In this document: piece after piece, positions 13,155 through 48,265 of the stretch | Position numbering within the stretch: the first letter of the stretch is position 1 | Layout: each line of letters begins with the position of its first letter | Source: Candidatus Cloacimonadales bacterium | GTDB lineage: Bacteria > Cloacimonadota > Cloacimonadia > Cloacimonadales > JAFGVF01 | Length of the DNA: 64,000 bases | Direction of reading: 5' to 3' | NCBI GenBank assembly: GCA_963663475.2 | Contig: CAXXJV010000001.1 | Span: forward strand, 1,504,001-1,568,000 | Position numbers and translations under genes: made by a program | Notes under the pieces: generated by a model | What the model was told of the DNA's origin: nothing | What the model saw: the letters and a program-made list of their open reading frames with translations, nothing else | Databases searched by the model: none

Positions 13155-16100
13155 ATGAAATTAATTCATAAGCTTTTATACGTCAGTATTATATTTTTGA
13201 TTTTTTGTCCCACACTTTTACATTCTGCATTTTTAAGAGACATGCCTGTTAAGGTAACTCAGCCTAATGGAGAAAGCTTAAACTGCCTTGCGTCAGGCGA
13301 TGAATACCACAACTGGTTACACGATGCCAAAGGTTTTACCATAATTCAATCACCTAAAACAGGTTACTATGTTTATGCTGAAAAAGAGGGAGAAAGGCTA
13401 GTCGCAGGTAATTTAATCGCAGGAATTTCTAATCCCCAAGACAGTAACTTAGTCCCAAATTTAAATATATCACAAGCTAAATATAGGTCTCTAAGAGAAA
13501 GCAAATTTACTATGCCCGAGACAAGGGATGCTCCGACAACAGGCACTATTAATAATATTGTGATTTTTATAAGGTTCAGTGATGAAACAGAATTTAATAA
13601 GCAAATTTCTACCTATGAAGGCTGGTTTAATAGCGATACTAATTCTCAGAAAAACTATTTCCTAGAAGCATCTTATAACCAGTTGACTGTTAACACAAGT
13701 TTCTATCCTGCAGCCTCTAATGGTTATCTTGTATCTTGGCAAGATTCTCATCCAAGATCCTATTACCAGCCTTATAATTCTGTTTCAAACCCTAATGGTT
13801 ATCAAGATGATACAGAAAGTAGAGACCGTGAATTCACACTCCTAGAAAATGCTATAGCTGGAGTGCAAAATTCTATTCCGCAAAGTTTAGTTATTGATGG
13901 TGATAATGATGGCCGAGTAGATAATGTGGTTTTCACTGTAAAAGGTGATTCTGATGGCTGGTCTGATTTACTTTGGCCTCATCGTTGGGCAATCTGGGAT
14001 CGTTATGTATATCTTAATGGAAAAAGAGTTTATGACTTTAATTTTCAGTTAGAAGAATTTCTAGATTATAGTAGTGTTGGGGTTATCTGTCATGAATTTT
14101 TCCATACTCTAGGAGCTCCAGATTTATATCATTATTCTGAAAATGGCATTAGTCCAGCAGGCCAGTGGGACCTAATGGAAGCAACTACTAATCCTCCTCA
14201 ACACATGGGGGCATATATGAAGTATAAATACGGTGATTGGATAGCTTCAATACCTACTATCTCTGCTGATGGTCAATATACTTTAAATCCTCTAACATCT
14301 TCAACTAATAATTGCTTTAGAATAAACTCTCCTAACTCCAGTTCAGAATATTTCGTAGTTGAATACCGAAAACAAATGGGTACTTATGAGTCTTCATTAC
14401 CAGGTTCAGGTTTACTTATATATAGAATTAATCCTGCCTATGATGGTAATGCTGACGGCCCTCCTGATGAAGTATATATCTATAGGCCCAATGGTACTAC
14501 TAGTAATAATGGCTATATAGCTTCGGCTCATTATAGTTCAAATGTGGGTAGAAGTGCTATTAATGCTACTAGTAACCCAAGTCCATTCTTAACAGATGGC
14601 TCTGCTGGAGGACTAGTGCTTTCAGATATTGGTTCAGCAAATGCTACTATCTCTTTCGTTAAAGGTCAAGGATCAGCTCATATTACCTGGGCTCCTGATG
14701 AAATTCAGGAAACTCTTCCAGTAAATTCTTCTATTTCACAAGATATTACAATTGGAAATATAGGAAATCTTGCCTTAAATTATACCTTGTCCAAAGCAAG
14801 TAATTCTGCTAATGTTCTTACAGAAGGCTTCGAAGGAGGAAGTATGCCATCGGGTTGGAGTCAAGAAAATGTATCTGGTCAAGATGTTGATTGGCAGTTC
14901 ACTAGTGGGGGATATAGTAGTCATCCAGAATCTGCTCAGCAAGGGACCTATAATGCAAGCTTCTATCATGGCTCATCTACAGCAAGTGTGTCAAAACTAA
15001 TCACTCCCGCTATGAACTTAACAGGAGCTAATACAGCAACTTTAACTTTCTATCATACCCAAGCAATCTGGGTAAATGATCAAGATGAATTAAGACTTTA
15101 TTACAGGACTTCCTCAGCAGCTTCTTGGAATTTACTCGCTACTTATACTGATAATATTACTGACTGGACTTACAGAAGTATTGATCTTCCTAACTTATCA
15201 GCTACTTATCAAATAGCTTTTGAGGCTACAGGACAATACGGCTATGGAGTTTGCTTGGATAATATTAATGTATCTCAAGAAATTCTTGAAGATTTATCTT
15301 GGATACAAGTCGCTGGTGGTGATTCTTATTCTGATCTGATTAATCCAGAATCTAATTCCCACACTGTAAGCATTAGCCTAGATTCTCATGGACTTAGCTT
15401 TGGGGAATACCAAACCGATCTGATAATCACCAGTAACGCTAATAATAATCCTCTTGTAACAATACCTGTATTAATGAATGTTGCAGGAATTAATGAACAA
15501 AATATTTCACTTGATAAGCAAGAAGTTGATTTTGGAACAGTTACAAGTAATGAATTTGTAATGGAAACTATAAGCTTGTCTAATATTGGTGGGGAGACTC
15601 TTAGTGGAAATATAATAGCAGATAACAACTTTACCATAAGCCAAGTAAGAAATAATATTTCTAAAAATGACATTATGTCTGCTCACCGAGATTTGCGACA
15701 AACACGTAACTTTAACTTCTCTCTAAGTGAAGGAACTTCAATATCATATAATATCAGTCATTCAACCCAACAAGCAGGTTCTTTCTCAGGCTCACTAACT
15801 ATTACATCAAATGATCCTGACTCTCCTGAAATTCATGTTCCCTTAACTTTAGAGGTTAAAGATCCAGCTAATATTAGTGTTGATCCTCTTACTATTGAAG
15901 TGAATTTACAGGAAAACCAATCCAGTGAGACAAGTATCTCAATTGCTAATACAGGAGACCTAGATTTAACTTGTTCTCTAAATCTTATAGAAGGTGACAA
16001 TAGAAATTTAGATGAAATATTCTCTGCCAACTTTGATGATCATGATTTATCAGATTGGAATATAGATTATTTCTACTCAGCAGACCACACTTGGCATATT

Positions 16101-17258
16101 GCTGATGTTTATGATACTTATTCTAGTTCTTATACTCTTGATAACTCTTCATTCCTATTCATTGATAGTGATGCTGCAGGTTATAACAATATTGATGATA
16201 TTATTGAGACTCCTCTTTTCGATGTTAGCAATTATACTGAAATTGCTGTTGAATTTGACCACTATTTTAACAAGTGGACTGATGAAATTGCAGATGTTGA
16301 TTTTTGGAATGGTTCGGAATGGATTAATATCGGAAGATGGCAAGGTGAATCTATTGGTTATTGGTCTACACCAAGTCACTTCTCCTACACTATAACTAAT
16401 GAAGGATACAGCAATGTTAAGCTAAGATTTCACTACTATGATGCATATTACGAATATTACTGGGCAATAGATAATCTCGTAATATCTGGACAAGGCAATC
16501 CTGCACCACAATGGGTTACTTTACCAAGTCAGTATAATAATCTTACTATTACTCCTGATAATATTGAAGATATTACTCTCAATTTCTCTTCAGCTGAACT
16601 TGCTACTGGTCTTTACACTGCTAATCTATCTATTCAGTCTAACTCAGCTGAAAACAATAATCTAAATATCCCAATTTCTCTCAACGTTTACCAACTAGTA
16701 AATGAACCAGACTGGCAACCAGTTATCTATCCCAACAATAGTGCCACTATCTATGCTGAAATTACCCACTTGAATGACCAAATAGCAGAGGATGATATTA
16801 TTTCTGCTTGGATTGGTGATGAGTGTAGAGGACTTGGTGAGATTGTTATAGTTAATAGAAGTCAAGCCTTTACAACTCTTGTAGTGCAATCTAATGGAAA
16901 TCCCGAAAATGTCTATTTCAAACTCTATGATAGATCCGCTGATATTGTCATAACTCAATCAAATGCGACATCTGTTATTAGCGGACAAGTAGTTGGCTCA
17001 GCCCAAAACCCATTTCCTATTAATATTGGACTTATTGAGCTAATTACCCCCAATAATATAGAAGTGCAAGTAGTCAATAATGTAGCTAGCCTTAACTGGC
17101 CTAGTGTTCCTAATGCTGATTACTATGAAATATATTATTCTCAAGATTTAGAAAATTGGGCTTTAATTACTAGTGTAACTACAAGTAGCTACCAACATAG
17201 TCTCCCACCAGTTAATAATCATGCCTATTTCTATAAAATAATCGCTAAGAAAAACTAG
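13155..17258 (+). CDS. Secreted M6 (immune inhibitor A-like) metalloprotease with Ig-like and adhesin-like accessory domains
   Basis: Signal peptide; QPNG...GDEY prodomain; HEFFHTLGAPDLY zinc motif; WDLM; EYFVVEYR and GSGLLIYRI; C-terminal FN3-like domain. Confidence 0.88.
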   Translation: MKLIHKLLYVSIIFLIFCPTLLHSAFLRDMPVKVTQPNGESLNCLASGDEYHNWLHDAKGFTIIQSPKTGYYVYAEKEGERLVAGNLIAGISNPQDSNLVPNLNISQAKYRSLRESKFTMPETRDAPTTGTINNIVIFIRFSDETEFNKQISTYEGWFNSDTNSQKNYFLEASYNQLTVNTSFYPAASNGYLVSWQDSHPRSYYQPYNSVSNPNGYQDDTESRDREFTLLENAIAGVQNSIPQSLVIDGDNDGRVDNVVFTVKGDSDGWSDLLWPHRWAIWDRYVYLNGKRVYDFNFQLEEFLDYSSVGVICHEFFHTLGAPDLYHYSENGISPAGQWDLMEATTNPPQHMGAYMKYKYGDWIASIPTISADGQYTLNPLTSSTNNCFRINSPNSSSEYFVVEYRKQMGTYESSLPGSGLLIYRINPAYDGNADGPPDEVYIYRPNGTTSNNGYIASAHYSSNVGRSAINATSNPSPFLTDGSAGGLVLSDIGSANATISFVKGQGSAHITWAPDEIQETLPVNSSISQDITIGNIGNLALNYTLSKASNSANVLTEGFEGGSMPSGWSQENVSGQDVDWQFTSGGYSSHPESAQQGTYNASFYHGSSTASVSKLITPAMNLTGANTATLTFYHTQAIWVNDQDELRLYYRTSSAASWNLLATYTDNITDWTYRSIDLPNLSATYQIAFEATGQYGYGVCLDNINVSQEILEDLSWIQVAGGDSYSDLINPESNSHTVSISLDSHGLSFGEYQTDLIITSNANNNPLVTIPVLMNVAGINEQNISLDKQEVDFGTVTSNEFVMETISLSNIGGETLSGNIIADNNFTISQVRNNISKNDIMSAHRDLRQTRNFNFSLSEGTSISYNISHSTQQAGSFSGSLTITSNDPDSPEIHVPLTLEVKDPANISVDPLTIEVNLQENQSSETSISIANTGDLDLTCSLNLIEGDNRNLDEIFSANFDDHDLSDWNIDYFYSADHTWHIADVYDTYSSSYTLDNSSFLFIDSDAAGYNNIDDIIETPLFDVSNYTEIAVEFDHYFNKWTDEIADVDFWNGSEWINIGRWQGESIGYWSTPSHFSYTITNEGYSNVKLRFHYYDAYYEYYWAIDNLVISGQGNPAPQWVTLPSQYNNLTITPDNIEDITLNFSSAELATGLYTANLSIQSNSAENNNLNIPISLNVYQLVNEPDWQPVIYPNNSATIYAEITHLNDQIAEDDIISAWIGDECRGLGEIVIVNRSQAFTTLVVQSNGNPENVYFKLYDRSADIVITQSNATSVISGQVVGSAQNPFPINIGLIELITPNNIEVQVVNNVASLNWPSVPNADYYEIYYSQDLENWALITSVTTSSYQHSLPPVNNHAYFYKIIAKKN

Positions 17259-17544
17259 TTAAGAGAAAAACATTTAGAAAATCCCTGACGGGATACAGAG
17301 TGTTGACAAAATCAAATTCTCTGAATCCTGGAAGGGATGTCTTTTAATAGGCAGGGTCCAAACTCTTCACTGCAATGTATTAAACTACCAAACCTGAACT
17401 TGAGCAGCCTTATCTACTACATGCAGAGTATCATAAATCACTGTTATGAGACTAATTTAGATATTTAATAATAGTGATTAATTATCTTGACTAAATTTTT
17501 TTAAAGATTATAATTGACCTTTGAAAATAATAGAGGAGAGATTT

Positions 17545-20500
17545 ATGAAAGTAAGAAACAAGAGTAAAATACTTTTTGGATTTATGTTTATTTTATTGAC
17601 TTTGATAATTACAAGTTGTGTTATTGAAGTTTTAGAGGTTCATCAGCCTGAACTTGGTTATGTTAATAGTAAAGTGATAACAAGCCTGAGAGCTGATTTA
17701 TCCCAAAATACGGGAAGTGGCGCTTATACCTTATCAATTCTAATGCCTGAAGATTGGTCAATTGAAAATAACCAAGTGGCATATAATTTTGAAAATACTC
17801 AAGGAACATTTTACTTCACATATAATGCTAATAATGCTTCAACAATTACTAATGCTCAAGAAACTCCACCTGGCTATATCTGGTGGTCTGGTCTTTCAGA
17901 AACTCACTCTCCTAATCTAGATAAAGCTGAAGCAAATGTTGTATTTATTACTGGCTCAGTTACTACAGATTATACTCTTAGATATCATGTCGGTGATAAT
18001 TCAGATAATAACCTGTCTGAATATCAATCAGGTCCTAAAGAAATTAGCTTAGTAAGCCAACCTCAAACTGACACTCTTCTTGATGGTAGAGCTTTTCCTA
18101 CAGCTGATACTAATCCCTGGGATAAACATATTTTTGAAGTAAGCTTTTTTTCACCTAATGAAAGTATACCAACTAGTGCAGAATTATTCTTAGATGATGT
18201 TGCTTATCAATTAAACCTAGTTGCAGGTAGTGCCGATAATGGGAAATATGGAGTTGATATAGACTTCATTTCAGGAGGTCAACATGATTATTATTTCTTG
18301 TTTGATAACTCCTTAAGATACCCTACGGGAAATGATAATTTATCTTTAACTGTTAATGATATAGAAATATACTCATTACCATATACAGAAACATTCGAGA
18401 ATGATAGTCCTTCAGTAAACCACTGGACTTTAGCCGGGGACTGGGAGATTGGTCAAGCTATGGGGGATAATGGTCATCCTGAAACTACTTATGAAGGTGA
18501 TTATATTGCTGGTACAGTATTATCTGGAGATGGATTAACTACCGTAAGTACTACTAATTCTATATTTACTTCTCCTGTTTATGATGCTAGAGAAGAAGCT
18601 TCTGTATTCTTGAATTTCTATCATAACTCCCAAATTAATGAGTATTCAAATTTGACAATTAGGGTTGAACAAGTTCAAACTGGCATAAACTTTGATAAAG
18701 ATATACTATCGAGTCAATATACAAATGGATGGGAACAAAAGTCTATAAATATTAGTGATCAAGTTGCTGGTACTTTTTTTAGAGTAATCTTTCAATTCGC
18801 TACAGGCTCCCAAGCTTGCCCAGGAACAGCAATTGATAACTTTAGCATAGATATATCTGATTTCTACGATGCTGAAATGAAGTTCGCTGAAAGCATAATT
18901 GTTGCAGACAAGGGTAGTACTGAAGCTTTTATGTTCTCTTTAAAAAATATAGGTTCAGCAAATGATAACTATGATTTAGAAATTACTCCAAATCCTGAGT
19001 TTTCCTATCAATTACTAGAATATGTAGCTAATGATACTTGGACTCCTCTTAACTTTAACGATATTGAACTTACTCCTTCTCAGGAAATTACTTTAAAATT
19101 ACAAGTACAAGTTCCCCTTGATACTCAATTACAAGAGGAAGAGATTATTCTCAATCTTTCTAGTGATAATGGGATTATGAAATCACAAAATCTTACAACT
19201 AAAGTGAGACCTAATGTATTAACAAGCCAAGAATTTGGCTATGTTATGTATTCTTCTGATTATTCTGATTTAGCTCAATATGATTGGATAGATAGTTCCA
19301 ATGCAATTCTTTTATCAGAAGGAGATTTCCTTTCTAGAACAATGTTGCCTTTAGGCTTTTTCTTTGATTATTTTGACTCAGTATATGATAGCATCTATTT
19401 AACTCCTTATGGAGGTGTTTCTTTTTATAATTATGAGGATTATTCAGATGTAGAAGAAATTCCTGGCAATGATGGTGTTGACTTACTCATTGGGCTATAC
19501 TTCACAGAATTAGGTTTAACTTATGGAGGAAATGCTTATTATCAACAGACAACTGTTACAAATCAAAATGCCTTTATTCTTACTTTCGAAGATTGCTATA
19601 CTTTAGAAAATAGATTTGATAGTTTTTCTGCTCAAATGATCATCTTGGAAAATGGAGATATTAAATTCCAATATGCTAGCCTTCCAGAAGAGTATGAATT
19701 AGGTTATCCACTGGTAGGTATTGAAAATTATTCTGGTACTGATGGAATAAATTTCCAAACAAACTATAATGCATTAAAAGAAAATTATGCCCTCTTATTC
19801 TCTAGAAATTTTGTAGCTATTAATCCTCAACCTGAAAATTACTTCCCTGCTTTAGCTTCTACTGATATTTCGTGGGAAACTGTTGGAGAATTTTCAAGTA
19901 TGAAAGTCTATTTGAAAGAAAATGATAATCAGTTCAGTCAAGCAGATTTAATCTATAATGGAAGTCCAACTTCTTCAATTTCTAACAATCAGATCCCAGC
20001 TATGACAATTAATAATACTTATTACTGGAAAGTGGTGGGTATCACTCAAGAAACTTATGAATTATCTTCTCCTATATACCAATTTTCTATTGCAGGAACT
20101 TCTCAAGCTAGTGGTTATGTAACTGATAGTTATACTGGGCAAGCTCTAGAAGGTGTTTTAGTATCTATTATGGATAATCAAGGTGGGGGAGAGTTTAGAA
20201 ATTCTTCAGAATCTACCTTAACTGATGCAAATGGTTACTGGGAAATGGATCTAATGTCTAATGCTTATTACTTAGAATTTAGTAAGGATGGTTATACTTC
20301 TAATACTGGTGTATACTTGAATCTTTATGGAGATAATTCAATTGATGTTGAAATGGATAGACTTTTTGCAATTAATCCATCACCAGCTAATGATAGCTTT
20401 GATATAAGTACAAACACTGAATTAAGTTGGGATAATCCAGCAGGATATAACTATGCTAGTATAGAAATTTCAGAAAATGAAAGCATGGAAAATGCTAACC

Positions 20501-21924
20501 TTGTTTATGACGGCCCTTTGACTAATAATCTATCTTCAGTTAGTAACTTGCAAGCAGGAAGATATTACTATTGGAGAGTTAATCTTTCTATTAATGGAAA
20601 TGAAAATGTAGCACTAGGCCAAGTATGGCGTTTTAGAACTCAATTTCCTCAATCTATTCCTGTTTCAGATTATGAAGTTGACTACCCAAATTACTATATG
20701 GAAAAAGCAACAAGAATAGCTTCGGGTTATCTAATACCTGGTGGAGAATCAGGAAATAGAGAGAAACTAATGAAAGTGAATAATGAAGGACAAGTTGTTT
20801 GGCAACATCATTATGCTATGACTAATAGTGTGTTTAAGAAAGCTATTAGATTAGATAACGGTAATTATTTAATTATCCGAAATCAAGATACTGGTTATTT
20901 ATACGGTGAAGAGACTGGTCTTAGTGAAGTCAATTCTCAAGGTGCTATTGTCTGGAATCAAAGCTATAAGTATTATGAGGGTTCTTCTTATAGCAATGAA
21001 GATGTTGATGATGGCATTATAGATTCAGCTGGAAATATACTTGTTTGTGGCTCTACTGGCTTTGGTAACTGGGACTTCCTACTAACAAAAGCTGCTAATA
21101 ACGCTAACTCTGCTATGTGGCAAAGAAGATATGGCTTAGAAGATTCACAAGAGAAATGTAATAGTATTCTTGAAGCATCAGGTGGTGGCTATGTTCTTAC
21201 AGGATATAGAGCTGGTACAGAAACTTCAACAATAGGTAATACAAGAGTTTTAGTAATAAAAGTAGATAATCAAGGTAATCCAGTCTGGGAATATGAAGAA
21301 GGATTTGGCCATTCAGGAGATGGTTATTCTTCTGAAGCTTTTAAATCACTTGAACTATCCGATGGTTCTATTCTGATTGCAGGACTTGTTTATGATGAAA
21401 CTTCTCACTTTCAAGTCAATCAATCACTATTAATTAAGATATCTGCCCAAGGGGAAAAAGTGTGGCACAAAACTTACCCAATTAAACAATTTGGTAGAGC
21501 TTTAGATTTAGCAGTAGATAATGATGAAAATATATATATAACTGGTGCTCCTGATGCTATGAAACTCGATAGCCAAGGAAATATTATCTGGATTTATGAA
21601 GATGATAATGATAATATCGGCTCTTATTTCTCAAGTGTATTTGTTACAGAAGCAGGCTTTACTATTGTTGGTGATGGTAAAATTATTATATTTGGACAAA
21701 ACACTGAAAGCCCTTTATCCAAACCATTAAATCCGGAAGTAACTATTACTGATAATCAAGTTGAACTTTCTTGGGTTAATGTTGTAGGTGCTACTTCTTA
21801 TAGAATAGAATCCTCTACAAGTCCTGATGGAGATTATAGTCTTGAAGGAAACTCTCCTACAAATAGCTGGAGTGGATCTTATTCAGGGGATAGAAAATTC
21901 TATCGAGTAAGAGCTGAAAATTAA
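17545..21924 (+). CDS. Large multidomain surface protein, probable lipoprotein (Ig-like, carboxypeptidase-regulatory-like and beta-propeller regions)
   Basis: ATG 17545 follows GAGGAG; LIITSC lipobox-like motif; SGYVTDSYTGQALEGVLV...TDANGYW; repeated K.D.QG..VW propeller blades; C-terminal FN3-like domain. Confidence 0.75.
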   Translation: MKVRNKSKILFGFMFILLTLIITSCVIEVLEVHQPELGYVNSKVITSLRADLSQNTGSGAYTLSILMPEDWSIENNQVAYNFENTQGTFYFTYNANNASTITNAQETPPGYIWWSGLSETHSPNLDKAEANVVFITGSVTTDYTLRYHVGDNSDNNLSEYQSGPKEISLVSQPQTDTLLDGRAFPTADTNPWDKHIFEVSFFSPNESIPTSAELFLDDVAYQLNLVAGSADNGKYGVDIDFISGGQHDYYFLFDNSLRYPTGNDNLSLTVNDIEIYSLPYTETFENDSPSVNHWTLAGDWEIGQAMGDNGHPETTYEGDYIAGTVLSGDGLTTVSTTNSIFTSPVYDAREEASVFLNFYHNSQINEYSNLTIRVEQVQTGINFDKDILSSQYTNGWEQKSINISDQVAGTFFRVIFQFATGSQACPGTAIDNFSIDISDFYDAEMKFAESIIVADKGSTEAFMFSLKNIGSANDNYDLEITPNPEFSYQLLEYVANDTWTPLNFNDIELTPSQEITLKLQVQVPLDTQLQEEEIILNLSSDNGIMKSQNLTTKVRPNVLTSQEFGYVMYSSDYSDLAQYDWIDSSNAILLSEGDFLSRTMLPLGFFFDYFDSVYDSIYLTPYGGVSFYNYEDYSDVEEIPGNDGVDLLIGLYFTELGLTYGGNAYYQQTTVTNQNAFILTFEDCYTLENRFDSFSAQMIILENGDIKFQYASLPEEYELGYPLVGIENYSGTDGINFQTNYNALKENYALLFSRNFVAINPQPENYFPALASTDISWETVGEFSSMKVYLKENDNQFSQADLIYNGSPTSSISNNQIPAMTINNTYYWKVVGITQETYELSSPIYQFSIAGTSQASGYVTDSYTGQALEGVLVSIMDNQGGGEFRNSSESTLTDANGYWEMDLMSNAYYLEFSKDGYTSNTGVYLNLYGDNSIDVEMDRLFAINPSPANDSFDISTNTELSWDNPAGYNYASIEISENESMENANLVYDGPLTNNLSSVSNLQAGRYYYWRVNLSINGNENVALGQVWRFRTQFPQSIPVSDYEVDYPNYYMEKATRIASGYLIPGGESGNREKLMKVNNEGQVVWQHHYAMTNSVFKKAIRLDNGNYLIIRNQDTGYLYGEETGLSEVNSQGAIVWNQSYKYYEGSSYSNEDVDDGIIDSAGNILVCGSTGFGNWDFLLTKAANNANSAMWQRRYGLEDSQEKCNSILEASGGGYVLTGYRAGTETSTIGNTRVLVIKVDNQGNPVWEYEEGFGHSGDGYSSEAFKSLELSDGSILIAGLVYDETSHFQVNQSLLIKISAQGEKVWHKTYPIKQFGRALDLAVDNDENIYITGAPDAMKLDSQGNIIWIYEDDNDNIGSYFSSVFVTEAGFTIVGDGKIIIFGQNTESPLSKPLNPEVTITDNQVELSWVNVVGATSYRIESSTSPDGDYSLEGNSPTNSWSGSYSGDRKFYRVRAEN

Positions 21925-38077: not shown

Positions 38078-40150
38078 TTAGAAAGAGTACTCAACCATTA
38101 ACTTGGTCCAAAAGTTATTATGTAACTCATCAGTTCTTTCATTAATAGTATCTGCACCGTAGGAATAACCACCAGACAACTCAATATATTTGTTAAATTT
38201 AAAGAGAAGATTTGCATATAGCCCAATATGATCAGTGTAATTATACTCGTGTCCATTTGCATCAATATATTTACCAGAATAATTATTATAGCGAATACCT
38301 GTTGTTGATTTCAATATTTTCCCAATATTCATGGTAAGATCGCCATTTATATATTGGTATCCGTTATCAAATTCTTCTTTTTCTGATGAAGATAAATCTA
38401 AGTAGTTCATAGATGTCATTGAGAGGGATAGATCATACCTTTCCATAAATGTATATTGGGCATTTACTGTATTTTTGTAAAGCTTATAAGTCTCATTAAA
38501 ATTATAAATTAGGGATTTACCAAAGGCTGTTGAATAGGTAAAAGATAAATTACTATAATTACTCCAAGTAAGTGATTGTCTAAGGTCTGGTTCATTGAAT
38601 ATCTCGCCAATATACTCTTGTTGATTAAATCTAAGTCCTAAGTCATAGTTAAATCCATTCATAGTTGAAGCCGTTAGGTAGGATGTAGCAGATAAACTTC
38701 TCTTATCTCCATTTTCATGAAAGAAACTGTAATCAATCCAAGAATCAAGGCCAAGATATCTTAATTTTTTAGTATCAAAAATATATTCAAAACTGCTTGT
38801 TAATAGAGTGTAATTTGTTTCATCTATTCTCCCCATATCTGCTGTGAAATTCTTTGATGAAGAGTTACTTGCCAACATTATATTATATTTTGGAGCATAA
38901 TAGTTATATTCTAAGGAAAAATCAATCCCATTAATTGTTTCTGTATCATCTGCTTTATTAGTAGATAAATAAGAATCAATCATTAAGCTATTTTTATCAT
39001 TAAAATAGATTACAGGTTTTATCTGTAGCAAACTATTAGTATAGTCATCTTGAGGATTAAATCTATTTAAAGTTGTAAGCTGTAAACTCCAATTATCGCC
39101 CTTAGGCTTAACATTTGCTACAAAATATTGATCTCCAGTATTATATATTTTACCATTGTCGGTTAGCTTTTCATCTTTAGCATAGAGAAGACCATAGCTA
39201 ATGTTTTGAAGATTCCCTGTAAACTTGGTGGCTATTTCAGGTTGTTGAATATGCCTAGTATAAAACATATAATTAGGTATATCAAAGATAGCATAATCTT
39301 CAGTAAAAAAATATCTATTCTCACTTAAATAAGGAGCAAACTCCAAATTATAGACATCTTGTTCATAATCCAAAGGTACTTCTGAGTAGTCCGGATTAAC
39401 AGATGCTTTGAAATTTAAAGCAGAAGATGGATTATAAGCAAAATCTAATCCAGAATATTTAGCTCCATACTTACTATCCTGATCTAAGTTATTATGCATA
39501 TATGAAGTATATCCTCGACTTGTAATATTAAGCTTACTACGGACAATATCAGATAAAATAATATCAAATCCTTTATCGAAATAGTCATTGCTCATCTTAA
39601 TATCAGTATATGGCCCACTATAAAGATGGTACTTCTTGGTATAAGCTCTGGAAAATGCTAACTTCCACTTGTGAACCTCTAGGTTAGGGTAATTTAGGTC
39701 ATTAAAGGGAATAGTGAAATCAACAATCCACTCACTATCTGTGCAAAAAGTCTTATAAGAGTAATTACTATCCCAATCATTACTGATATTAAGATCAGAT
39801 TTTCTTACTCCATCTAATAAAGAACCATTTGGATAAGCATAATAGATATAACCAAATCTATCCTTTGGTGAAACAACAACTTGCACTCTTAAATAATCCG
39901 CTTTCTGATAAGTCTCATGATTAACTAAATTTCCAAAAATCATATCTTCATTCTTAGCCATCACAGCGTGAATGTAGAGATTCTCTTTGTCATAAGAAGC
40001 ACTAATGCTTATTGGTTCAATAAGTTCAAGCATATCATTAGGTTCATTTCTCATAAATTGACTTTGATCTGCTGTGAGGATGTTTTCTCCCCAAATTGAT
40101 GCACATAACAACCATAGTAAATTACCCAACAATATTTTAAAACTAGCCAT
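38078..40150 (-). CDS. Outer-membrane protein with an N-terminal CBM9/DOMON-like domain and a DUF5916-like barrel
   Basis: Signal peptide; YDKENLY, W.VDFTIPFNDL; NPDYSEV..D and ENRYFFTE...FYTRHI motifs; terminal VEYSF. Confidence 0.7.
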   Translation of the reverse strand: MASFKILLGNLLWLLCASIWGENILTADQSQFMRNEPNDMLELIEPISISASYDKENLYIHAVMAKNEDMIFGNLVNHETYQKADYLRVQVVVSPKDRFGYIYYAYPNGSLLDGVRKSDLNISNDWDSNYSYKTFCTDSEWIVDFTIPFNDLNYPNLEVHKWKLAFSRAYTKKYHLYSGPYTDIKMSNDYFDKGFDIILSDIVRSKLNITSRGYTSYMHNNLDQDSKYGAKYSGLDFAYNPSSALNFKASVNPDYSEVPLDYEQDVYNLEFAPYLSENRYFFTEDYAIFDIPNYMFYTRHIQQPEIATKFTGNLQNISYGLLYAKDEKLTDNGKIYNTGDQYFVANVKPKGDNWSLQLTTLNRFNPQDDYTNSLLQIKPVIYFNDKNSLMIDSYLSTNKADDTETINGIDFSLEYNYYAPKYNIMLASNSSSKNFTADMGRIDETNYTLLTSSFEYIFDTKKLRYLGLDSWIDYSFFHENGDKRSLSATSYLTASTMNGFNYDLGLRFNQQEYIGEIFNEPDLRQSLTWSNYSNLSFTYSTAFGKSLIYNFNETYKLYKNTVNAQYTFMERYDLSLSMTSMNYLDLSSSEKEEFDNGYQYINGDLTMNIGKILKSTTGIRYNNYSGKYIDANGHEYNYTDHIGLYANLLFKFNKYIELSGGYSYGADTINERTDELHNNFWTKLMVEYSF

Positions 40151-40179: not shown

Positions 40180-41856
40180 TTATCCTACTTTAATCTCTCT
40201 ATTTATGTATCCTGAAATTATGTCTTGATGAGAAGTTATTATAATTGTCTTGGACTTGAATAAATCAAAGAGAAGACTTAAAATATTATTAGCATTTTCA
40301 ATATCTAAGTTTGCTACCGGCTCATCAAGAAGAATAATTTCTGGATTACAGAGAAAAAGTCTAGCAATAGCGATTCTCTGTTTTTCACCTCCAGATAACT
40401 TTTCTCCATAATTTCCTCTCAAGGAGTATAGTTCTTCATTAGTATTCAAATATTCAAGCTTTACTTTTTCTAATACATTTATCACTTCTGAATCGGTTGC
40501 TTTGGGATTACCATATCTGATATTCTCTATTAGAGGTAGATCATACATATAACTCTCTTGAGTTAAATAACCGATTTTTTTTCTAAGCAACTGAGCTGGT
40601 ATTGATTTGATTTCATAGTTGTTAAGTAAAAGAGAACCTTGATAATTATCCTCTAATTTTGTAAGTAAATTTAGAAGGGTTGTTTTTCCAGAACCACTTG
40701 CTCCTACGAAGGCAACTTTATCTCCAATATTTATATCAAAGGATAGATTGTCGATTATATAGTTATTATGAGCTGTGTCATGTTTGAAAGAGATATTTTT
40801 AAACTGAATTATTGGATTTGAGAAACGTGTAAATATATTTCCTTCTACTATATCGACTATTTCTGCTTTGTTTTCACAATCAGTAATTACTTGAGTAATT
40901 TTTCTATAGGAGACAAATGAGCTTATGATGGAATTATAATATCTTGTGATATTCATAAAAGGAAGATAAAATCTACCTAAATATTGAATGAATACTATTA
41001 AACCTCCTACAGATAATTCATTATTCTTTACTAAATTTATTCCTACTACTATTATGATAACATTTATGATTATCCGGGCACCACTGGTAAAGGGAAAAAT
41101 TAATAGATGTAAATTAAGTCCCTTCTTACCAGTCTGAACATATTCTGTTATTAAATTATTGAATAAACTATCCTCTTCGTTTTCTTTAATAAATAACTTA
41201 AATAATTTATAATCTTTAAAACGACTTATAATCGTCGATTTTATTTTTGACATTTGCTCTCGTTCAAGGTTTGATAAGGCATATTGCTTCTTCCCAAAAA
41301 AGTAACCATTAAAAATAACTAACGGGACAGGTATTAACATTATCAAAGTTAGTGATTTAGATAAGTTAAAACAAACGAACGCCATTATAATGGCAGTAAT
41401 CAAATCAACAACAATTCCATTGATTGGACTTATTATAATATCTCTAATTGCTTCCACATCTGAAATAATCAAGGTAGATGCCTCTCCAGATGTCATTTCT
41501 TTTAAATACTTCGGCTTTACCCTAAGTAACTTAGAATATAATGTTTTCCTAACATCAGCTTTAACCTTGTACCCATATAAGGTAACTAAATAACCTCGTA
41601 TTAAGGATACTATGAAGACCCCTAAGGAAACAATTAAATAAGCAATAACCAAGAAGTTAACTATTGACAAACTACTAAGATTATGAAGAAAACTCAGACT
41701 ATTCTCAATGAGATAATTACTAGTGCGAGATTTTCCAGTTAAGTTATCAATCAATATGCCAAATACTTGCTGAGGCAAGACAGTAACAAAAGATTCTAAG
41801 AATACTAAAAATACTATTATAATAAATGTAGGACTTTTAAGATATTTTAATAACAT
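40180..41856 (-). CDS. ABC exporter (fused TMD-NBD, MsbA/MdlB-like), no C39 peptidase domain
   Basis: Walker A GASGSGKTT, signature LSGGEKQR, Walker B ILLDEP; N-terminal TM helices. Confidence 0.9.
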   Translation of the reverse strand: MLLKYLKSPTFIIIVFLVFLESFVTVLPQQVFGILIDNLTGKSRTSNYLIENSLSFLHNLSSLSIVNFLVIAYLIVSLGVFIVSLIRGYLVTLYGYKVKADVRKTLYSKLLRVKPKYLKEMTSGEASTLIISDVEAIRDIIISPINGIVVDLITAIIMAFVCFNLSKSLTLIMLIPVPLVIFNGYFFGKKQYALSNLEREQMSKIKSTIISRFKDYKLFKLFIKENEEDSLFNNLITEYVQTGKKGLNLHLLIFPFTSGARIIINVIIIVVGINLVKNNELSVGGLIVFIQYLGRFYLPFMNITRYYNSIISSFVSYRKITQVITDCENKAEIVDIVEGNIFTRFSNPIIQFKNISFKHDTAHNNYIIDNLSFDINIGDKVAFVGASGSGKTTLLNLLTKLEDNYQGSLLLNNYEIKSIPAQLLRKKIGYLTQESYMYDLPLIENIRYGNPKATDSEVINVLEKVKLEYLNTNEELYSLRGNYGEKLSGGEKQRIAIARLFLCNPEIILLDEPVANLDIENANNILSLLFDLFKSKTIIITSHQDIISGYINREIKVG

Positions 41857-41973
41857 GAATATTCCTTAAGACATAATAATTTATTAAATGAAATTTTAAA
41901 ACAGGGTTATCGTCAAGTATAATTTCTAATTGCTGTAAAAAATACAAACAATTTTAATTAAATATTATGAATC

Positions 41974-42099
41974 CTATTTTGGATCAACAGGTATTTCAGA
42001 ATAACATGAATCTCCATCATTTTTCCACGTTTTGCAACCAGCACCGATATTGATCATTTGATCAAGTTCTATAATCTCAGGCTTTTCATAAGTTTCCAT
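41974..42099 (-). CDS. Putative RiPP precursor peptide (41 aa), absent from the ORF track
   Basis: AAGGAG RBS with an A-rich spacer, then METYEKPEIIELDQMINIGAGCKTWKNDGDSCYSEIPVDPK*; starts 11 bp after the rSAM stop; YxKPxI leader motif. Confidence 0.85.
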   Translation of the reverse strand: METYEKPEIIELDQMINIGAGCKTWKNDGDSCYSEIPVDPK

Positions 42100-42110
42100 T
42101 TTTTTCTCCT

Positions 42111-43457
42111 TTATATATTATTTTGATAACCCTCTTTATCAAATTCTGCTCCATTACAAAGAATTGTATTTATATATTCATCCATCTGGCTTTCCTCAAC
42201 TCGAATTATCCAAGCTGGGCAAATAGCGCAATGATATTTTTTATCACAATTATGACATTTAAAAGCTTGTTTTTTAACATTTTTATTTTTTAGTAATAAG
42301 TTAATTTTTTCCCCAATATCCATCCATGCCTTTTCTATAGAAATATTACTATTAGTCATGCTTATAGAAGGAATCCTCAACTGAACACATGGACTAATAT
42401 TTAATTCTGAATCAATAAAACAGGATGTAATTCCACCACCGCAAATCCAATCAATTTCCTTAAGTTGGGGTGGAATTGAATTTAACATTTTTTTTGAAAA
42501 TACTAAATTCTTCTCTCTATCTAGCGGTTCACTTGGTACTAGTTCTTTGATCCGATGAATTTCTTCAGGCAGTAAGTTCATAGATATCAAGTTTAAATCA
42601 GTTGGATCATTTGGTGGGCATATATTTGAACCATAATTGAACGGAATATTTAAATTAGCACTGATATCATAAATTTTTTTTATTATCTCTTTTGTTTCAG
42701 AATGTAACTGGGTTCGTGTTTGAATAGGGATATTGTTTTGTTTGAAAAATTTTATTGAATTCATTATCCGATTGAATGCTTCAGGCATCTTGGTAAAATA
42801 TTCATAAGATATATTATCATAACCATACAAAGAGATAGCAATCATTGATGGCTTTTTATCTATAAAACATTCTTTTAACTCTTCAGTTAAATGATACCCA
42901 TTTGTATATACTGTTATTTTAAATCCTAAAGAATAGGCATGTGAATATATTTCGCAAAAATCAGGGTGTAATGTTGCTTCTCCTCCAGTAAACAATAAAC
43001 TATAGCATCCAATCTTGGAAAGCTCCGTAATAAGCTCTTTAGTCCTTTCAGTATTAATGAAAGAAGATTGTTTTTTGTCTACATAACAATGCTTACACTT
43101 AAAATTACAGATATTTGTTAACTCAATGGTTGCATTTAGAATGTTCCTTTCTAATCTATTTTGGATAGTAATTTCATCAAAGATGTTATAATTTTGTTTT
43201 GCTAGACCATCAAAATTACCTTTTTCAAAGTTATTCAATAATTTTACAAATTCATCATAATCATGAATTAACATACTCTTTTCTATATTAAATATGGACA
43301 TTAACTTGCTTATACAGTCTTTTTTACTCAACCCAAGAGAATGGACTTGGAACATAATTATACTTGTTTTATTCAATTTCATAACTTTTTCATAGTTTTT
43401 ATACACTAAAAATAACTCAACACCTATTTTTCATAATTTTAAATTTATGTATTGCAT
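42111..43457 (-). CDS. RRE(PqqD)-radical SAM-SPASM peptide maturase; in-frame TGA at codon 9 from ATG 43457 (the ORF track starts at GTG 43406)
   Basis: LNKT...GLS...L...F.......D...F..LL RRE pattern; ELTNICNFKCKHCY (CxxxCxxC); FTGGE, TNG, ISLYG; SPASM CGGG...ISPC...CHNC...HCAIC...C. Confidence 0.88.
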
Positions 43458-43518
43458 CAAAACTCCATTTTTTTTATTATGTTTCACTTATTTTCTTTTA
43501 GTTTATTAATGAGTTCTA

Positions 43519-43719
43519 TCAATTTTCTAAGTAATAGATTACACCATTAACCTCTATTAAAACAATATTTTCATTATTATCCTCATAAATAATGTGATAC
43601 TCCACATGCTCCAAATTAGATAAGATCATTTTATCAATTTGTACAAAATTAACTTGACTATAATTACATACAAAAAAAATAAATACACTAAGTAATAGAA
43701 AAAAAATAATCTTATTCAT
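43519..43719 (-). CDS. Small secreted or membrane-anchored protein (66 aa)
   Basis: GAGG RBS; hydrophobic N-terminus; acidic beta-rich C-terminus; first gene on the - strand of the island. Confidence 0.6.
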   Translation of the reverse strand: MNKIIFFLLLSVFIFFVCNYSQVNFVQIDKMILSNLEHVEYHIIYEDNNENIVLIEVNGVIYYLEN

Positions 43720-43813
43720 GAAGTTCCTCTGTAATAATAAATGAGGAAAATTAAAAAGTCCCGCAAAGATATGTTATACTACTGTATAATAATAAATTAT
43801 AAAGGTATAGATA

Positions 43814-44812
43814 ATGGAAAGATATTATGATAGGGTGTATACAACCGCTAAAAAAGTAGCCTTTTTATATATAAAAAATGCAGATGATGTTGAAGATATT
43901 ATTCAGTTGACTCTTATGCAATTTTATTTAAACAAAGATAAAATTACTGAAGAAAAAATTTATAACTGGGTATTTACAGTTACTAAAAACTTCTGTATGC
44001 AGTATTTTCGTTCAAGGAAAAAAGAAGATGAGTTAAAAAAATCTTATATAATTGAGGCAAGTAGTAATTTATCCCATGATGATAATCAGGATAAAAAAAA
44101 TGAAGAAAATTTAATCATAATAGATATTGATCAGTATGGATTTATTAATAACAAAGATAAAGTTATTTTAAAAGATTATATTGATAAACATAATAGTATT
44201 TCTAAGCTAAGTAAAAGCTATAAAGTGAAAAAAAAGACTCTACAGAATAAGATAAACCTTTTATTGAAAGAGATTAAACTCTATCATATTATTCAGTCGC
44301 AACCTCATGTATTTGATGCTTTGCCAGGCACTAAATTATCCAGAAATATTAATAATTTCCTTAAAACTATCACTAAGGCGATTGAGACAAATGAGATAGA
44401 TAAATTAAAACACTATCTCAGTGACTGTAAAATAAACGATAGTATTGATAATTTATATGTTAAGGAAGTTTCTTCATACAGAATTCAAATTGTAGCATCA
44501 AATATTTATATGTTAATCGTAGGTTTTATAGATTTGGATGACCATGTTAAATTTTTTATGGCTCGATTTAAATTAATAAATAACTATACTTTGAAATTTA
44601 TTGAATTTCCCATCTTTCCTAAGAGAGTTGTTGCTCTTGATAAAAAATATGCAGAGGGGAAAGAAGGGTTAAAAGGACTTTCTGATGATAGAGGTGCTAG
44701 TAATATGAAGTTTGGAACTCCAGACACTATACTAGACAAAAGAATGGGTAAAGTTGTTCAAACAGAAAATGAATTTAAACCCAAAAATAAGGCAGTAGAT
44801 CTTTGTGAATAG
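43814..44812 (+). CDS. ECF-type sigma-70 factor with a long C-terminal extension
   Basis: Region 2: AFLYIKNADDVEDIIQ...FY...NWVFTVTKNFCMQYFR; HTH-like SISKLSKSYKVKKKTLQNKI; about 170 extra residues. Confidence 0.75.
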   Translation: MERYYDRVYTTAKKVAFLYIKNADDVEDIIQLTLMQFYLNKDKITEEKIYNWVFTVTKNFCMQYFRSRKKEDELKKSYIIEASSNLSHDDNQDKKNEENLIIIDIDQYGFINNKDKVILKDYIDKHNSISKLSKSYKVKKKTLQNKINLLLKEIKLYHIIQSQPHVFDALPGTKLSRNINNFLKTITKAIETNEIDKLKHYLSDCKINDSIDNLYVKEVSSYRIQIVASNIYMLIVGFIDLDDHVKFFMARFKLINNYTLKFIEFPIFPKRVVALDKKYAEGKEGLKGLSDDRGASNMKFGTPDTILDKRMGKVVQTENEFKPKNKAVDLCE

Positions 44813-46602: not shown

Positions 46603-48265
46603 CAGGCTGTTGACAAACCTATTGTAATTAATAATATGATTTAATATAATACATAAAAAGTTGAATAATTAGCAATAAATATCTTGACATAATATACCCA
46701 TAATACTTTATTGTACAAGAGGTAAGATATGATTGAAAAAATAAATAGACAGACAGAAATTGAGATGGTAACCATCGAACAATTAGTAAAAGAAGACCAT
46801 CCTATAAGAAAAATTGACAAATATATAAATTTTGATTTTATATATGATAAAGTAAAACATTTGTATTGTTTGGATAACGGACGTCCAGGTATTGACCCTG
46901 TAAGATTCTTTAAAATGCTACTAATCGGATATTTATATGGGATTAAGTCAGAAAGAAAATTAGTTCTTGAAATAGAACATAGTACAGCCTTTAGGTGGTT
47001 TTTAGGTTATAAACTATTAGATAAGATACCTCACCATTCAGTTTTTAGCAAAAATCGACAAAGACGATTCAAGGATAGTTCAATATTTCAAGAAATTTTT
47101 GAAGATTTAGTCTTCATGGCACTGAAGTCTGATATGCTTGATGGCAAAGTATTATATACAGACTCTACACATACTAAAGCCAATGCAAATAACAAGAATT
47201 TCAGAAAAATAGAGGTTACCAAAACTCCCCAAGAATATGTTGGAGAATTAAATAAAGCAGTAAATGAAGATAGAGTAGCTCATGATAAGAAACCTTTCCC
47301 TGAAGCCGAGATTAAAGAAGAAACCAAGACAATAAAGCAAAGTACGACAGATCCAGATAGTGGAGAAATGAATCGTGAACGCAAGCCACGGGGTTTTTAT
47401 TATTTAGATCACAGAACAACAGATTCTCTCTTTAATATAATTACAGATGTTCATATAACTCCGGCTAATGTAAGTGATAGTACATGCTATATAGACAGGT
47501 TAAAATATCAGATTAACAGGTTTGGTTTTGATGTTGAAGCTGTGGGTTTAGATGCTGGTTATAATACAACATATATTTGTAAGGAACTATATGATTTAGG
47601 CATATTTGCAACAATGGGAAGAAGAAAAGCAGGAGGGAAAAAGCACTTTTTTAAGAAGAATAAGTTTAAATATGATAAAGATAAAGATATATGGATATGT
47701 CCTAATAATTGTATCTTAAAGTATTATACAACCACGAGAACAGGTTCAAAAGAGTATAAATCGTCAAAATCAGATTGTAAAAACTGTAAATATTTTGGGC
47801 AGTGTATAACTAATAAAAATGGAACTAAATCAATAAGAAATCATGTTTGGCAAAAATATAAAGATTGGGTTAAAGATAATACTAATAGTGAATATGGTAA
47901 GGAAATATATCGACGGCGAAAAGAAACTATAGAACGGAGTTTCGCTAATAGCAAAGAATTACACGGTTATCGATATGCTAAATTTAGGGGAATTGAGAAA
48001 ATGAAATTCCAAGCTTACATGACCGCTATAGCTCAAAATATCAAAAAAATGGCCAATATCCTCAGCAGACGTGGAGGTGGTGGAACCAATCCATTATCAA
48101 AATTTATTTTTTCACAAATGAAGTATTATATTTACATTCTGAAGTTCCAAATCAGTAAAATTAACATAAAAAAAGGCAAAACATAAATGACTCTTCAGAT
48201 TTATTTAAATTGCTAAAAACAGCGTAAATTTCTATTTAAAAAAGAGGGGGTTTGTCTACTACCTG
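46603..48265 (+). mobile_element. IS1182-family insertion sequence (1663 bp) with a 17-bp target duplication
   Basis: Imperfect TIRs caggctgttgacaaacc / ggtttgtctactacctg; direct repeat gaaccctgtaagggttt at 46586-46602 and 48266-48282. Confidence 0.9.
46729..48186 (+). CDS. IS1182-family DDE transposase
   Basis: GRPGIDP...LYGIKSER, DSTHTKANAN, STTDPD, DAGY, CP..C..C, YRRRKETIERSFA. Confidence 0.92.
   Translation: MIEKINRQTEIEMVTIEQLVKEDHPIRKIDKYINFDFIYDKVKHLYCLDNGRPGIDPVRFFKMLLIGYLYGIKSERKLVLEIEHSTAFRWFLGYKLLDKIPHHSVFSKNRQRRFKDSSIFQEIFEDLVFMALKSDMLDGKVLYTDSTHTKANANNKNFRKIEVTKTPQEYVGELNKAVNEDRVAHDKKPFPEAEIKEETKTIKQSTTDPDSGEMNRERKPRGFYYLDHRTTDSLFNIITDVHITPANVSDSTCYIDRLKYQINRFGFDVEAVGLDAGYNTTYICKELYDLGIFATMGRRKAGGKKHFFKKNKFKYDKDKDIWICPNNCILKYYTTTRTGSKEYKSSKSDCKNCKYFGQCITNKNGTKSIRNHVWQKYKDWVKDNTNSEYGKEIYRRRKETIERSFANSKELHGYRYAKFRGIEKMKFQAYMTAIAQNIKKMANILSRRGGGGTNPLSKFIFSQMKYYIYILKFQISKINIKKGKT

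Follow-up and report, generated by a model that had tools for sequence, protein, structure and literature searches.

Analysis of the window, the whole 64,000-nucleotide stretch of the Candidatus Cloacimonadales contig, revealed a minus-strand gene of 41 codons plus stop (41974..42099) that most likely encodes a RiPP precursor cross-linked by the neighboring radical SAM enzyme. Judged from sequence comparison, this open reading frame (ORF) is a real gene under purifying selection, and the peptide most likely belongs to a large, unstudied family in which it represents one small branch. Functionally, the system resembles other radical SAM/SPASM peptide maturases guided by a recognition element. 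By the tests available, it falls outside the curated families of sactipeptides, ranthipeptides, PQQ, mycofactocin, streptide, and lasso peptides.

The precursor gene was delimited by translation, by its orthologue in the same-genus genome G002, and by clade and family alignments. The minus-strand translation was identical to the 41-residue peptide read in the first-pass annotation, and the features described there, namely the opening Y4-E-K-P7, the hinge G19-A-G21, the 20-residue tail from C22 to K41, and two cysteines ten residues apart (Cys22 and Cys32), were all present. The leader comprised approximately residues 1-21 with Y4-x-x-P7, the hydrophobic I9, I10, and L12, and G19, followed by a core of approximately residues 22-41. 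A Shine-Dalgarno-like AGGAG (42106..42110, minus strand) preceded the peptide ATG by six nucleotides (A6), and the gene started 11 nucleotides beyond the stop codon of the radical SAM gene (42111-42113). The A-run between the AGGAG and the ATG (42099-42105, a T-run on the window strand) was one base longer in contigs from runs X5 and X6, the insertion being reported at 42098, such that the spacer varies in length. Across the coding bases of the peptide (41974-42096), no letter difference was listed for contigs of runs X1, X5, X6, and X7, of which X1 is probably the source of the assembly.

The homologue search proposed in the first-pass annotation recovered the G002 orthologue and three variants. 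The G002 genome (OY829950.1, labeled Candidatus Cloacimonadales) carried an ORF at the same place with 85% identity and was the only one with a true peptide match among 60 relatives' genomes; weak matches in 13 others (E 0.02-1.4) fell mostly inside long frames and were judged spurious. The variants included P0049, which was retrieved by a word-index search of 5.8 billion proteins and differed only by W25C, and a 45-residue peptide on the 1.4-kb metagenome contig L102, where it stood between an enzyme of 40% identity (P0008) and the start of an ABC exporter gene in the same order as in the window. The third variant, the new 45-residue P0171, was found by searching a profile of four peptides against 1.84 billion representatives, which gave four matches at E<=0.001: P0049, P0171, and the repeat proteins P0170 (ankyrin-like repeats) and P0172 (repeats), the latter two being judged spurious as relatives.

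Comparison of the peptide gene with G002 showed 12 changed codons, six of them synonymous (including Cys22 and Gly29) and six non-synonymous, and dN/dS was 0.16 for the peptide gene and 0.22 for the enzyme gene (429 codons). A frame of 41 codons is short and the genome is A+T-rich, as would suit a chance open frame from which no peptide is made, but this reading is extremely improbable in view of the position and frame retained at 40% enzyme identity in L102, the synonymous changes at six codons with Cys22 among them, the presence of a ribosome-binding site, and the matching of the family profile (see below) solely on the enzyme's strand.

The radical SAM/SPASM maturase gene with its fused N-terminal recognition element (42111..43457, minus strand) was assigned from Pfam, homologues, and an AlphaFold2 model. 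Its full-length frame begins at ATG 43455-43457; in this genome, GTG 43404-43406 marks the start of the longest open frame. Full-length homologues were P0006, P0007, and P0008. The protein matched Pfam Radical_SAM (2.3e-18), and the Cx3Cx2C motif (C117, C121, and C124) was invariant in 14 homologue sequences, while six C-terminal cysteines (C339, C357, C401, C404, C410, and C413) were invariant or nearly so in the same alignment; a seventh conserved cysteine near the C-terminus was read from the alignment by eye and was absent from its conserved lists. Pfam SPASM was not reported for the maturase at E<=0.01, more distant homologues and Atlas neighbors carried this domain, and the corresponding region of the AlphaFold2 model had low confidence. 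A 98%-identical metagenome protein (P0006) had a C-terminus differing from that encoded at 42111-42180 and without the last conserved cysteine, possibly due to a frame change in that contig. No other close relatives of the fused-domain enzyme were found among 185,579 species representatives.

Among the best 25 of 57 NCBIfam matches listed for the maturase, no model reached its cut-off, the best being heme-pathway enzymes (approximately 100 bits against a cut-off of 500), and peptide maturase models scored 44-54 bits against cut-offs of 300-850. Sequence-profile matches among solved proteins were SkfB (1e-22), SuiB (7.3e-12), PqqE (7.4e-08), CteB (7.3e-07), and anSME (1e-04), and the AlphaFold2 model (mean pLDDT 73.9, pTM 0.76) gave a similar Foldseek ranking headed by SkfB (2.3e-13), SuiB (1.3e-12), and CteB (2.3e-11). 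The SkfB of the sporulation killing factor (PDB 6efn) was thus the best solved match by both profile and fold and is likewise a peptide maturase with an N-terminal peptide-binding domain, its entry title naming it a RiPP maturase; however, identity in the fold alignment was 16%, the NCBIfam SkfB model scored 51.5 bits against 300, and the precursors are unrelated. Other sactisynthase models also fell under their cut-offs (AlbA 46.1/850 and StsB 45.5/625). According to passages of a published study, SkfB is a sactisynthase that forms a thioether, sactisynthases share a clade with enzymes forming C-C and C-O bonds, and the reaction type of an uncharacterized radical SAM enzyme is not predictable without very high identity (PMC10288494).

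The recognition element occupied approximately residues 1-80 of the maturase (43218..43457, minus strand). In the AlphaFold2 model, strands at residues 6-11, 14-19, and 24-28 were followed by helices at 30-40, 45-56, and 60-78, such that residues 6-78 formed a βββααα block (pLDDT 77-90) with the topology of a RiPP recognition element. A profile of the fused domain aligned with a profile of five discrete proteins from relatives (hhalign 79%, E 1.5e-5, 68 columns), and the three of the five that were checked were all above the Pfam PqqD cut-off (L103 8.5e-11, L108 1.8e-13, and L029 2e-05). Relatives' enzymes without the N-terminal domain (344-349 aa, 35-37% identity) were accompanied by a separate PqqD gene. 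Pfam PqqD did not match the fused domain at E<=1, and a PDB profile search with the N-terminal domain alone gave zero matches at E<=10. The first-pass proposal of a leader and core precursor served by a recognition element is supported by the modeled βββααα fold, by the profile alignment to PqqD proteins, and by the family-wide retention of the leader tyrosine, leader proline, and first cysteine (see below).

Prediction of the complex between the leader and the recognition element, also suggested in the first-pass annotation, was carried out with P0006 residues 1-100 and the peptide and gave an ipSAE of 0.42 in three runs, compared with 0.00 for the best of three controls. This value passed as "weak support," a mark reached by 51 of 78 solved complexes and two of 108 mismatched pairs, but it was not counted as evidence: five of the 78 solved complexes passed at ipSAE <=0.60, as did all four passing mismatches, and since complexes of recognition elements with leaders have been solved for other systems, the pass may reflect likeness to them. 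Contacts were at least 63% alike between runs, the pLDDT of the partner was 46, and no interface was given.

The precursor lies within a minus-strand block in the order radical SAM gene, peptide gene, ABC exporter gene, and 690-aa protein gene, with the enzyme-peptide-exporter order conserved in both G002 and L102. The exporter (558 aa, 40180..41856; Pfam ABC_membrane 1.3e-34 and ABC_tran 2.3e-31) consisted of a transmembrane domain, starting at residue 11, and an ATPase without a peptidase domain, and an exporter was encoded at the same position in G002 and L102. The last gene of the conserved block (38078..40150, minus strand) codes for a 690-aa secreted or outer-membrane-like protein that had no Pfam match and for which G002 has a 690-aa ORF at the same position beside the exporter; its Atlas language-model neighbors carried DUF5916 in 19-84% of members and sometimes CBM9, which serves as a lead only. 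A Pfam scan of the block proteins identified no protease gene. Divergently oriented on the plus strand, a 332-aa protein (43814..44812) had an N-terminal sigma-70 region 2 as its sole domain (Pfam Sigma70_r2 6.2e-07), a 328-aa ORF held the same divergent position in G002, and a role as a dedicated regulator is possible. The 66-aa ORF P0005 (43519-43719) was rejected as part of the system, having no family match and no ORF of at least 60 aa in its place in G002.

A promoter and terminator scan of 41700-43900 gave 18 promoter-like sites against 17.6 expected and zero terminators, and the 129-nucleotide stretch from the last peptide codons to the ABC exporter start gave no attenuator signal (fold z = -0.93). 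No RNA-derived runs were listed at the locus, X5 being labeled metatranscriptomic and flagged "probably DNA." The cluster was patchily distributed, occurring in two of the 12 genomes of the family (72-100% complete), and a 485-aa DDE transposase (DDE_Tnp_1_6, DUF772) encoded at 46729-48186 on the plus strand, approximately 3 kb from the cluster, fits this distribution. Two very long plus-strand ORFs (13155-17258 and 17521-21924; 1367 and 1467 aa) were present further upstream in the window.

Short ORFs with the same opening were identified beside enzyme homologues in records labeled Bacilli (L022), Desnuesiella (L025), Brachyspira (L029), Gemmatimonadales (L183), and Verrucomicrobiota (L199), as well as in many soil-type metagenome contigs. 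First regular-expression screens for the leader gave many chance matches and were superseded by a profile search with a family HMM built from 18 peptides, which themselves match by construction. This HMM gave 82 matches in 52,697 six-frame segments from 255 loci, and all 80 matches in enzyme-oriented loci were on the enzyme's strand. A profile-matching peptide was found in 67 of 80 metagenome loci, and many of the 13 loci without one (L101, L105, L107, L112, L124, L143, L146, L154, L158, L162, L164, L167, and L168) were short contigs. Of 1381 candidates, the family alignment recovered 1361 peptide clusters at E<=1; these had no Pfam domain, and those with a name were called "hypothetical protein," with Thermoanaerobaculia or Vicinamibacterales as the source. 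The family peptides and the peptide itself (the latter at E<=10) were matched by no model of NCBIfam or Pfam. A full-text literature search returned nothing on these peptides as a family or on RiPPs modified by radical SAM enzymes in Cloacimonadota, and the supplementary tables of PMC10288494 may list relatives.

The soil-type relatives (L108 3636-6716; also L109-L180), labeled Acidobacteriota, carried an unannotated five-gene cassette encoding PqqD, a radical SAM/SPASM enzyme, a three-cysteine peptide ending in G-S, an HprK-like protein, and an S26-like peptidase. They share the leader register Y-x-x-P ... G-x-C-K with the Cloacimonadales peptide and have enzymes of 28-30% identity, but differ from it in the three cysteines, the C-terminal G-S, the discrete chaperone, and the additional kinase-like and peptidase genes. 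Variation in locus architecture was also observed in other members: two different precursor genes flank the enzyme gene in L120, one on each side (953-1411 and 3338-3577); a second, HemN-like radical SAM gene lies between the exporter and precursor genes in L103 (1935-3026), the core of which is a 12-residue CWNCGG type; and the Bacilli-labeled enzymes of L022 and P0015-P0017 (515-516 aa) have an extra C-terminal extension of approximately 170 residues.

Within 75 unique family peptides, the leader tyrosine was conserved in 74, the proline in all 75, and the first cysteine in all 75, with a lysine following this cysteine in 66. The residue before the leader proline was proline in 35/75 and lysine in 26/75, and serine in two clade members. 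Since the lysine was not conserved, the YxKP motif of the first-pass annotation, compared there with the WxKP of PqqA, is better described as YxxP, the form seen in lasso leaders rather than a WxKP of the PqqA type. Its likeness to lasso leaders held in form, as lasso-peptide leaders carry a Y-x-x-P motif, although no lasso-leader or PqqA model matched the peptide. The parallel with lasso systems, which combine such leaders with PqqD-like B1 chaperones, extends to the conservation of Y-x-x-P across the whole peptide family and to weak matches of the relatives' discrete chaperones to lasso PqqD models (2.3e-05 and 6.6e-05); however, the modifying enzyme here is a radical SAM protein, and no cyclase or B2 protease Pfam family was found in the genes scanned between 35 and 48 kb.

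PqqA/PqqD/PqqE likewise combine a short precursor that has an aromatic-x-x-Pro start with a SPASM radical SAM enzyme and a recognition element of the PqqD fold. The peptide could also be read as giving rise to a PQQ- or mycofactocin-type redox cofactor inside the cell rather than to a secreted peptide, given the resemblance of its leader to the PqqA-type motif and the weak matches of the enzyme to the PqqE (TIGR02109) and mycofactocin maturase models (54.3 and 50.2 bits). These scores are far under the cut-offs of 381 and 265, there was no PqqA model match, the motif lysine is not conserved, and the block has no other PQQ or mycofactocin genes, an ABC exporter being the conserved neighbor in place of the remaining genes of the PQQ operon, so that this reading is highly improbable.

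The first-pass annotation had asked which core residues are invariant. In five unique clade peptides these were K23, K26, D28, S31, C32, Y33, and E35, along with Y4, E5, and P7 of the leader, whereas positions 27 (N/D), 30 (D/N), and 34 (S/C) varied, giving the core pattern K-x-x-K-[ND]-D-x-[DN]-S-C-Y-x-E. The first cysteine was present in all clade peptides, one place earlier in P0171. Position 25 was W, W, C, S, and F across the five peptides, and the Lys-Trp and W-x-N crosslinks considered in the first-pass annotation thereby lose their anchor. The same variation bears on the comparison with streptide, the chemistry of which needs a Lys-Trp pair: SuiB (PDB 5v1q), one solved entry of which has the precursor bound, was the second-best match in fold and sequence and has the same three-domain layout, but relatives carry C, S, or F at the tryptophan position.

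The best explanation for the locus, held here with considerable confidence, is that of a RiPP precursor whose leader (residues 1 to approximately 21) would dock through Y4-x-x-P7 and its hydrophobic residues on the fused winged-helix recognition element of the enzyme, a docking that would present the core C22-K41 to the active site. The enzyme would then abstract a hydrogen atom from a core residue and close one or two rings, most likely through thioethers of the sactipeptide or ranthipeptide type that join Cys22, Cys32, or both to a carbon atom of a residue close by. The product would exit via the adjacent ABC exporter, and the leader would presumably be cut off by a protease encoded outside the block.

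If the peptide is a precursor, its residue conservation gives a cysteine thioether in the mature product roughly an even chance. Cysteine was the sole core residue type common to the whole family and Y-x-E was confined to the clade, for which reason the thioether was ranked first and a tyrosine-centered link second, the remaining probability falling to other chemistries. That SkfB is the nearest solved enzyme also favors a thioether. CteB of SCIFF (thermocellin; PDB 5wgg) and PapB of freyrasin install thioethers from cysteine to a non-alpha carbon and share with the maturase the layout of recognition element, radical SAM domain, and SPASM domain, the last being putative in the maturase, and their precursors have in common with the peptide a cysteine-rich core with acidic residues. 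The peptide nevertheless differs from ranthipeptides in having two core cysteines rather than six and no Cx3D repeat, its spacings being C-x5-D, C-x7-D, and C-x2-E, which agrees with the mismatch to the Cx3D and six-cysteine SCIFF patterns recorded in the first-pass annotation. The PapB model (NF047865) scored 44.4 bits against 340, no SCIFF-type peptide model matched, and no SCIFF maturase model was among the best 25 of 57 matches listed.

Alternatively, the ring may be a carbon-carbon or carbon-oxygen link on Tyr33, such as a Tyr-x-Glu cyclophane of the triceptide type, with the cysteines forming a disulfide or having another role. Triceptides have a conserved aromatic-x-x motif in the core, and Y33 and E35 were invariant across all five unique peptides of the clade, the residue between the two being S or C; furthermore, the second-best structural match, SuiB, is a carbon-carbon-forming enzyme of the same domain layout. 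The motif was, however, absent from the wider family, which has no conserved core aromatic (L103, L022, and the soil peptides having none there) and retains the first cysteine in 75/75 peptides, the other clade aromatic, Trp25, is variable, and no triceptide maturase model was among the best 25 of 57 NCBIfam matches listed. A link on Tyr33 is accordingly unlikely. Only somewhat less doubtful is that the peptide is a compact member of a very large RiPP superfamily, defined by the YxxP leader and the invariant first cysteine and comprising at least 1361 clusters, whose enzymes install an undescribed crosslink. In this clade such a link might be centered on the core pattern, e.g., from Cys32 or Tyr33 to a Lys, Asp, or Glu side chain, and would then be distinct from sactionine and from the ranthionines and cyclophanes known so far.

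Whether the thioether pathway proposed above operates in this genome is affected by a TGA stop in frame at maturase codon 9 (43431..43433, minus strand), which lies in strand 1 of the recognition element where homologues have AGA (Arg). Relative to the longest open frame found here, homologues start 17 residues earlier; codon 9 of the full-length frame is AGA in G002 and L101, and the genome search reported "1 TGA" inside the match of this genome. The TGA allele was found in contigs of X1 and of X5, a run from another study, and AGA in those of X6 and X7. The X7 contig, with the AGA-type allele, had one base missing from the A5 run at 43386, a deletion that would cause a frameshift within this N-terminal domain; together with the TGA allele, it suggests that selection on the recognition element is relaxed. 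Initiation at the following start codons in frame, GTG (codon 18) or ATG (codon 26), would drop strand 1 and part or all of strand 2.

The nonsense codon falls within the recognition element and may leave the pathway silent or impaired in this genome, for which the chances are about even. A stronger form of this reading, in which the locus is a decaying remnant with an intact precursor, a knocked-out maturase, and no modified peptide made, falls a little short of an even chance. Decay would accord with a TGA that recurs in runs of two studies, at a codon read as AGA in G002, L101, and contigs of X6 and X7, with the strands lost from the later starts, and with the patchy occurrence of the cluster and the nearby IS transposase. 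Conversely, the maturase is open over its other 431 codons, the genes for the exporter and the 690-aa protein are uninterrupted and of full length, only X5 is independent support for the TGA allele since X1 is probably the assembly source, and low-level read-through or a truncated yet active enzyme may sustain the pathway.

The nonsense allele common to runs of two studies would represent a natural loss-of-function variant that could be compared with the intact alleles. As the family illustrates, radical SAM enzymes reuse the YxxP leader grammar of the lasso type, and solving the chemistry of one member would annotate more than 1000 "hypothetical" short ORFs together with their enzymes in records labeled Cloacimonadales, Bacilli, Desnuesiella, Brachyspira, Gemmatimonadales, Verrucomicrobiota, and Acidobacteriota classes. 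The most compact system for such work is that of the Cloacimonadales clade, with three or four genes, a core of 20 residues, and a recognition element fused to the enzyme.
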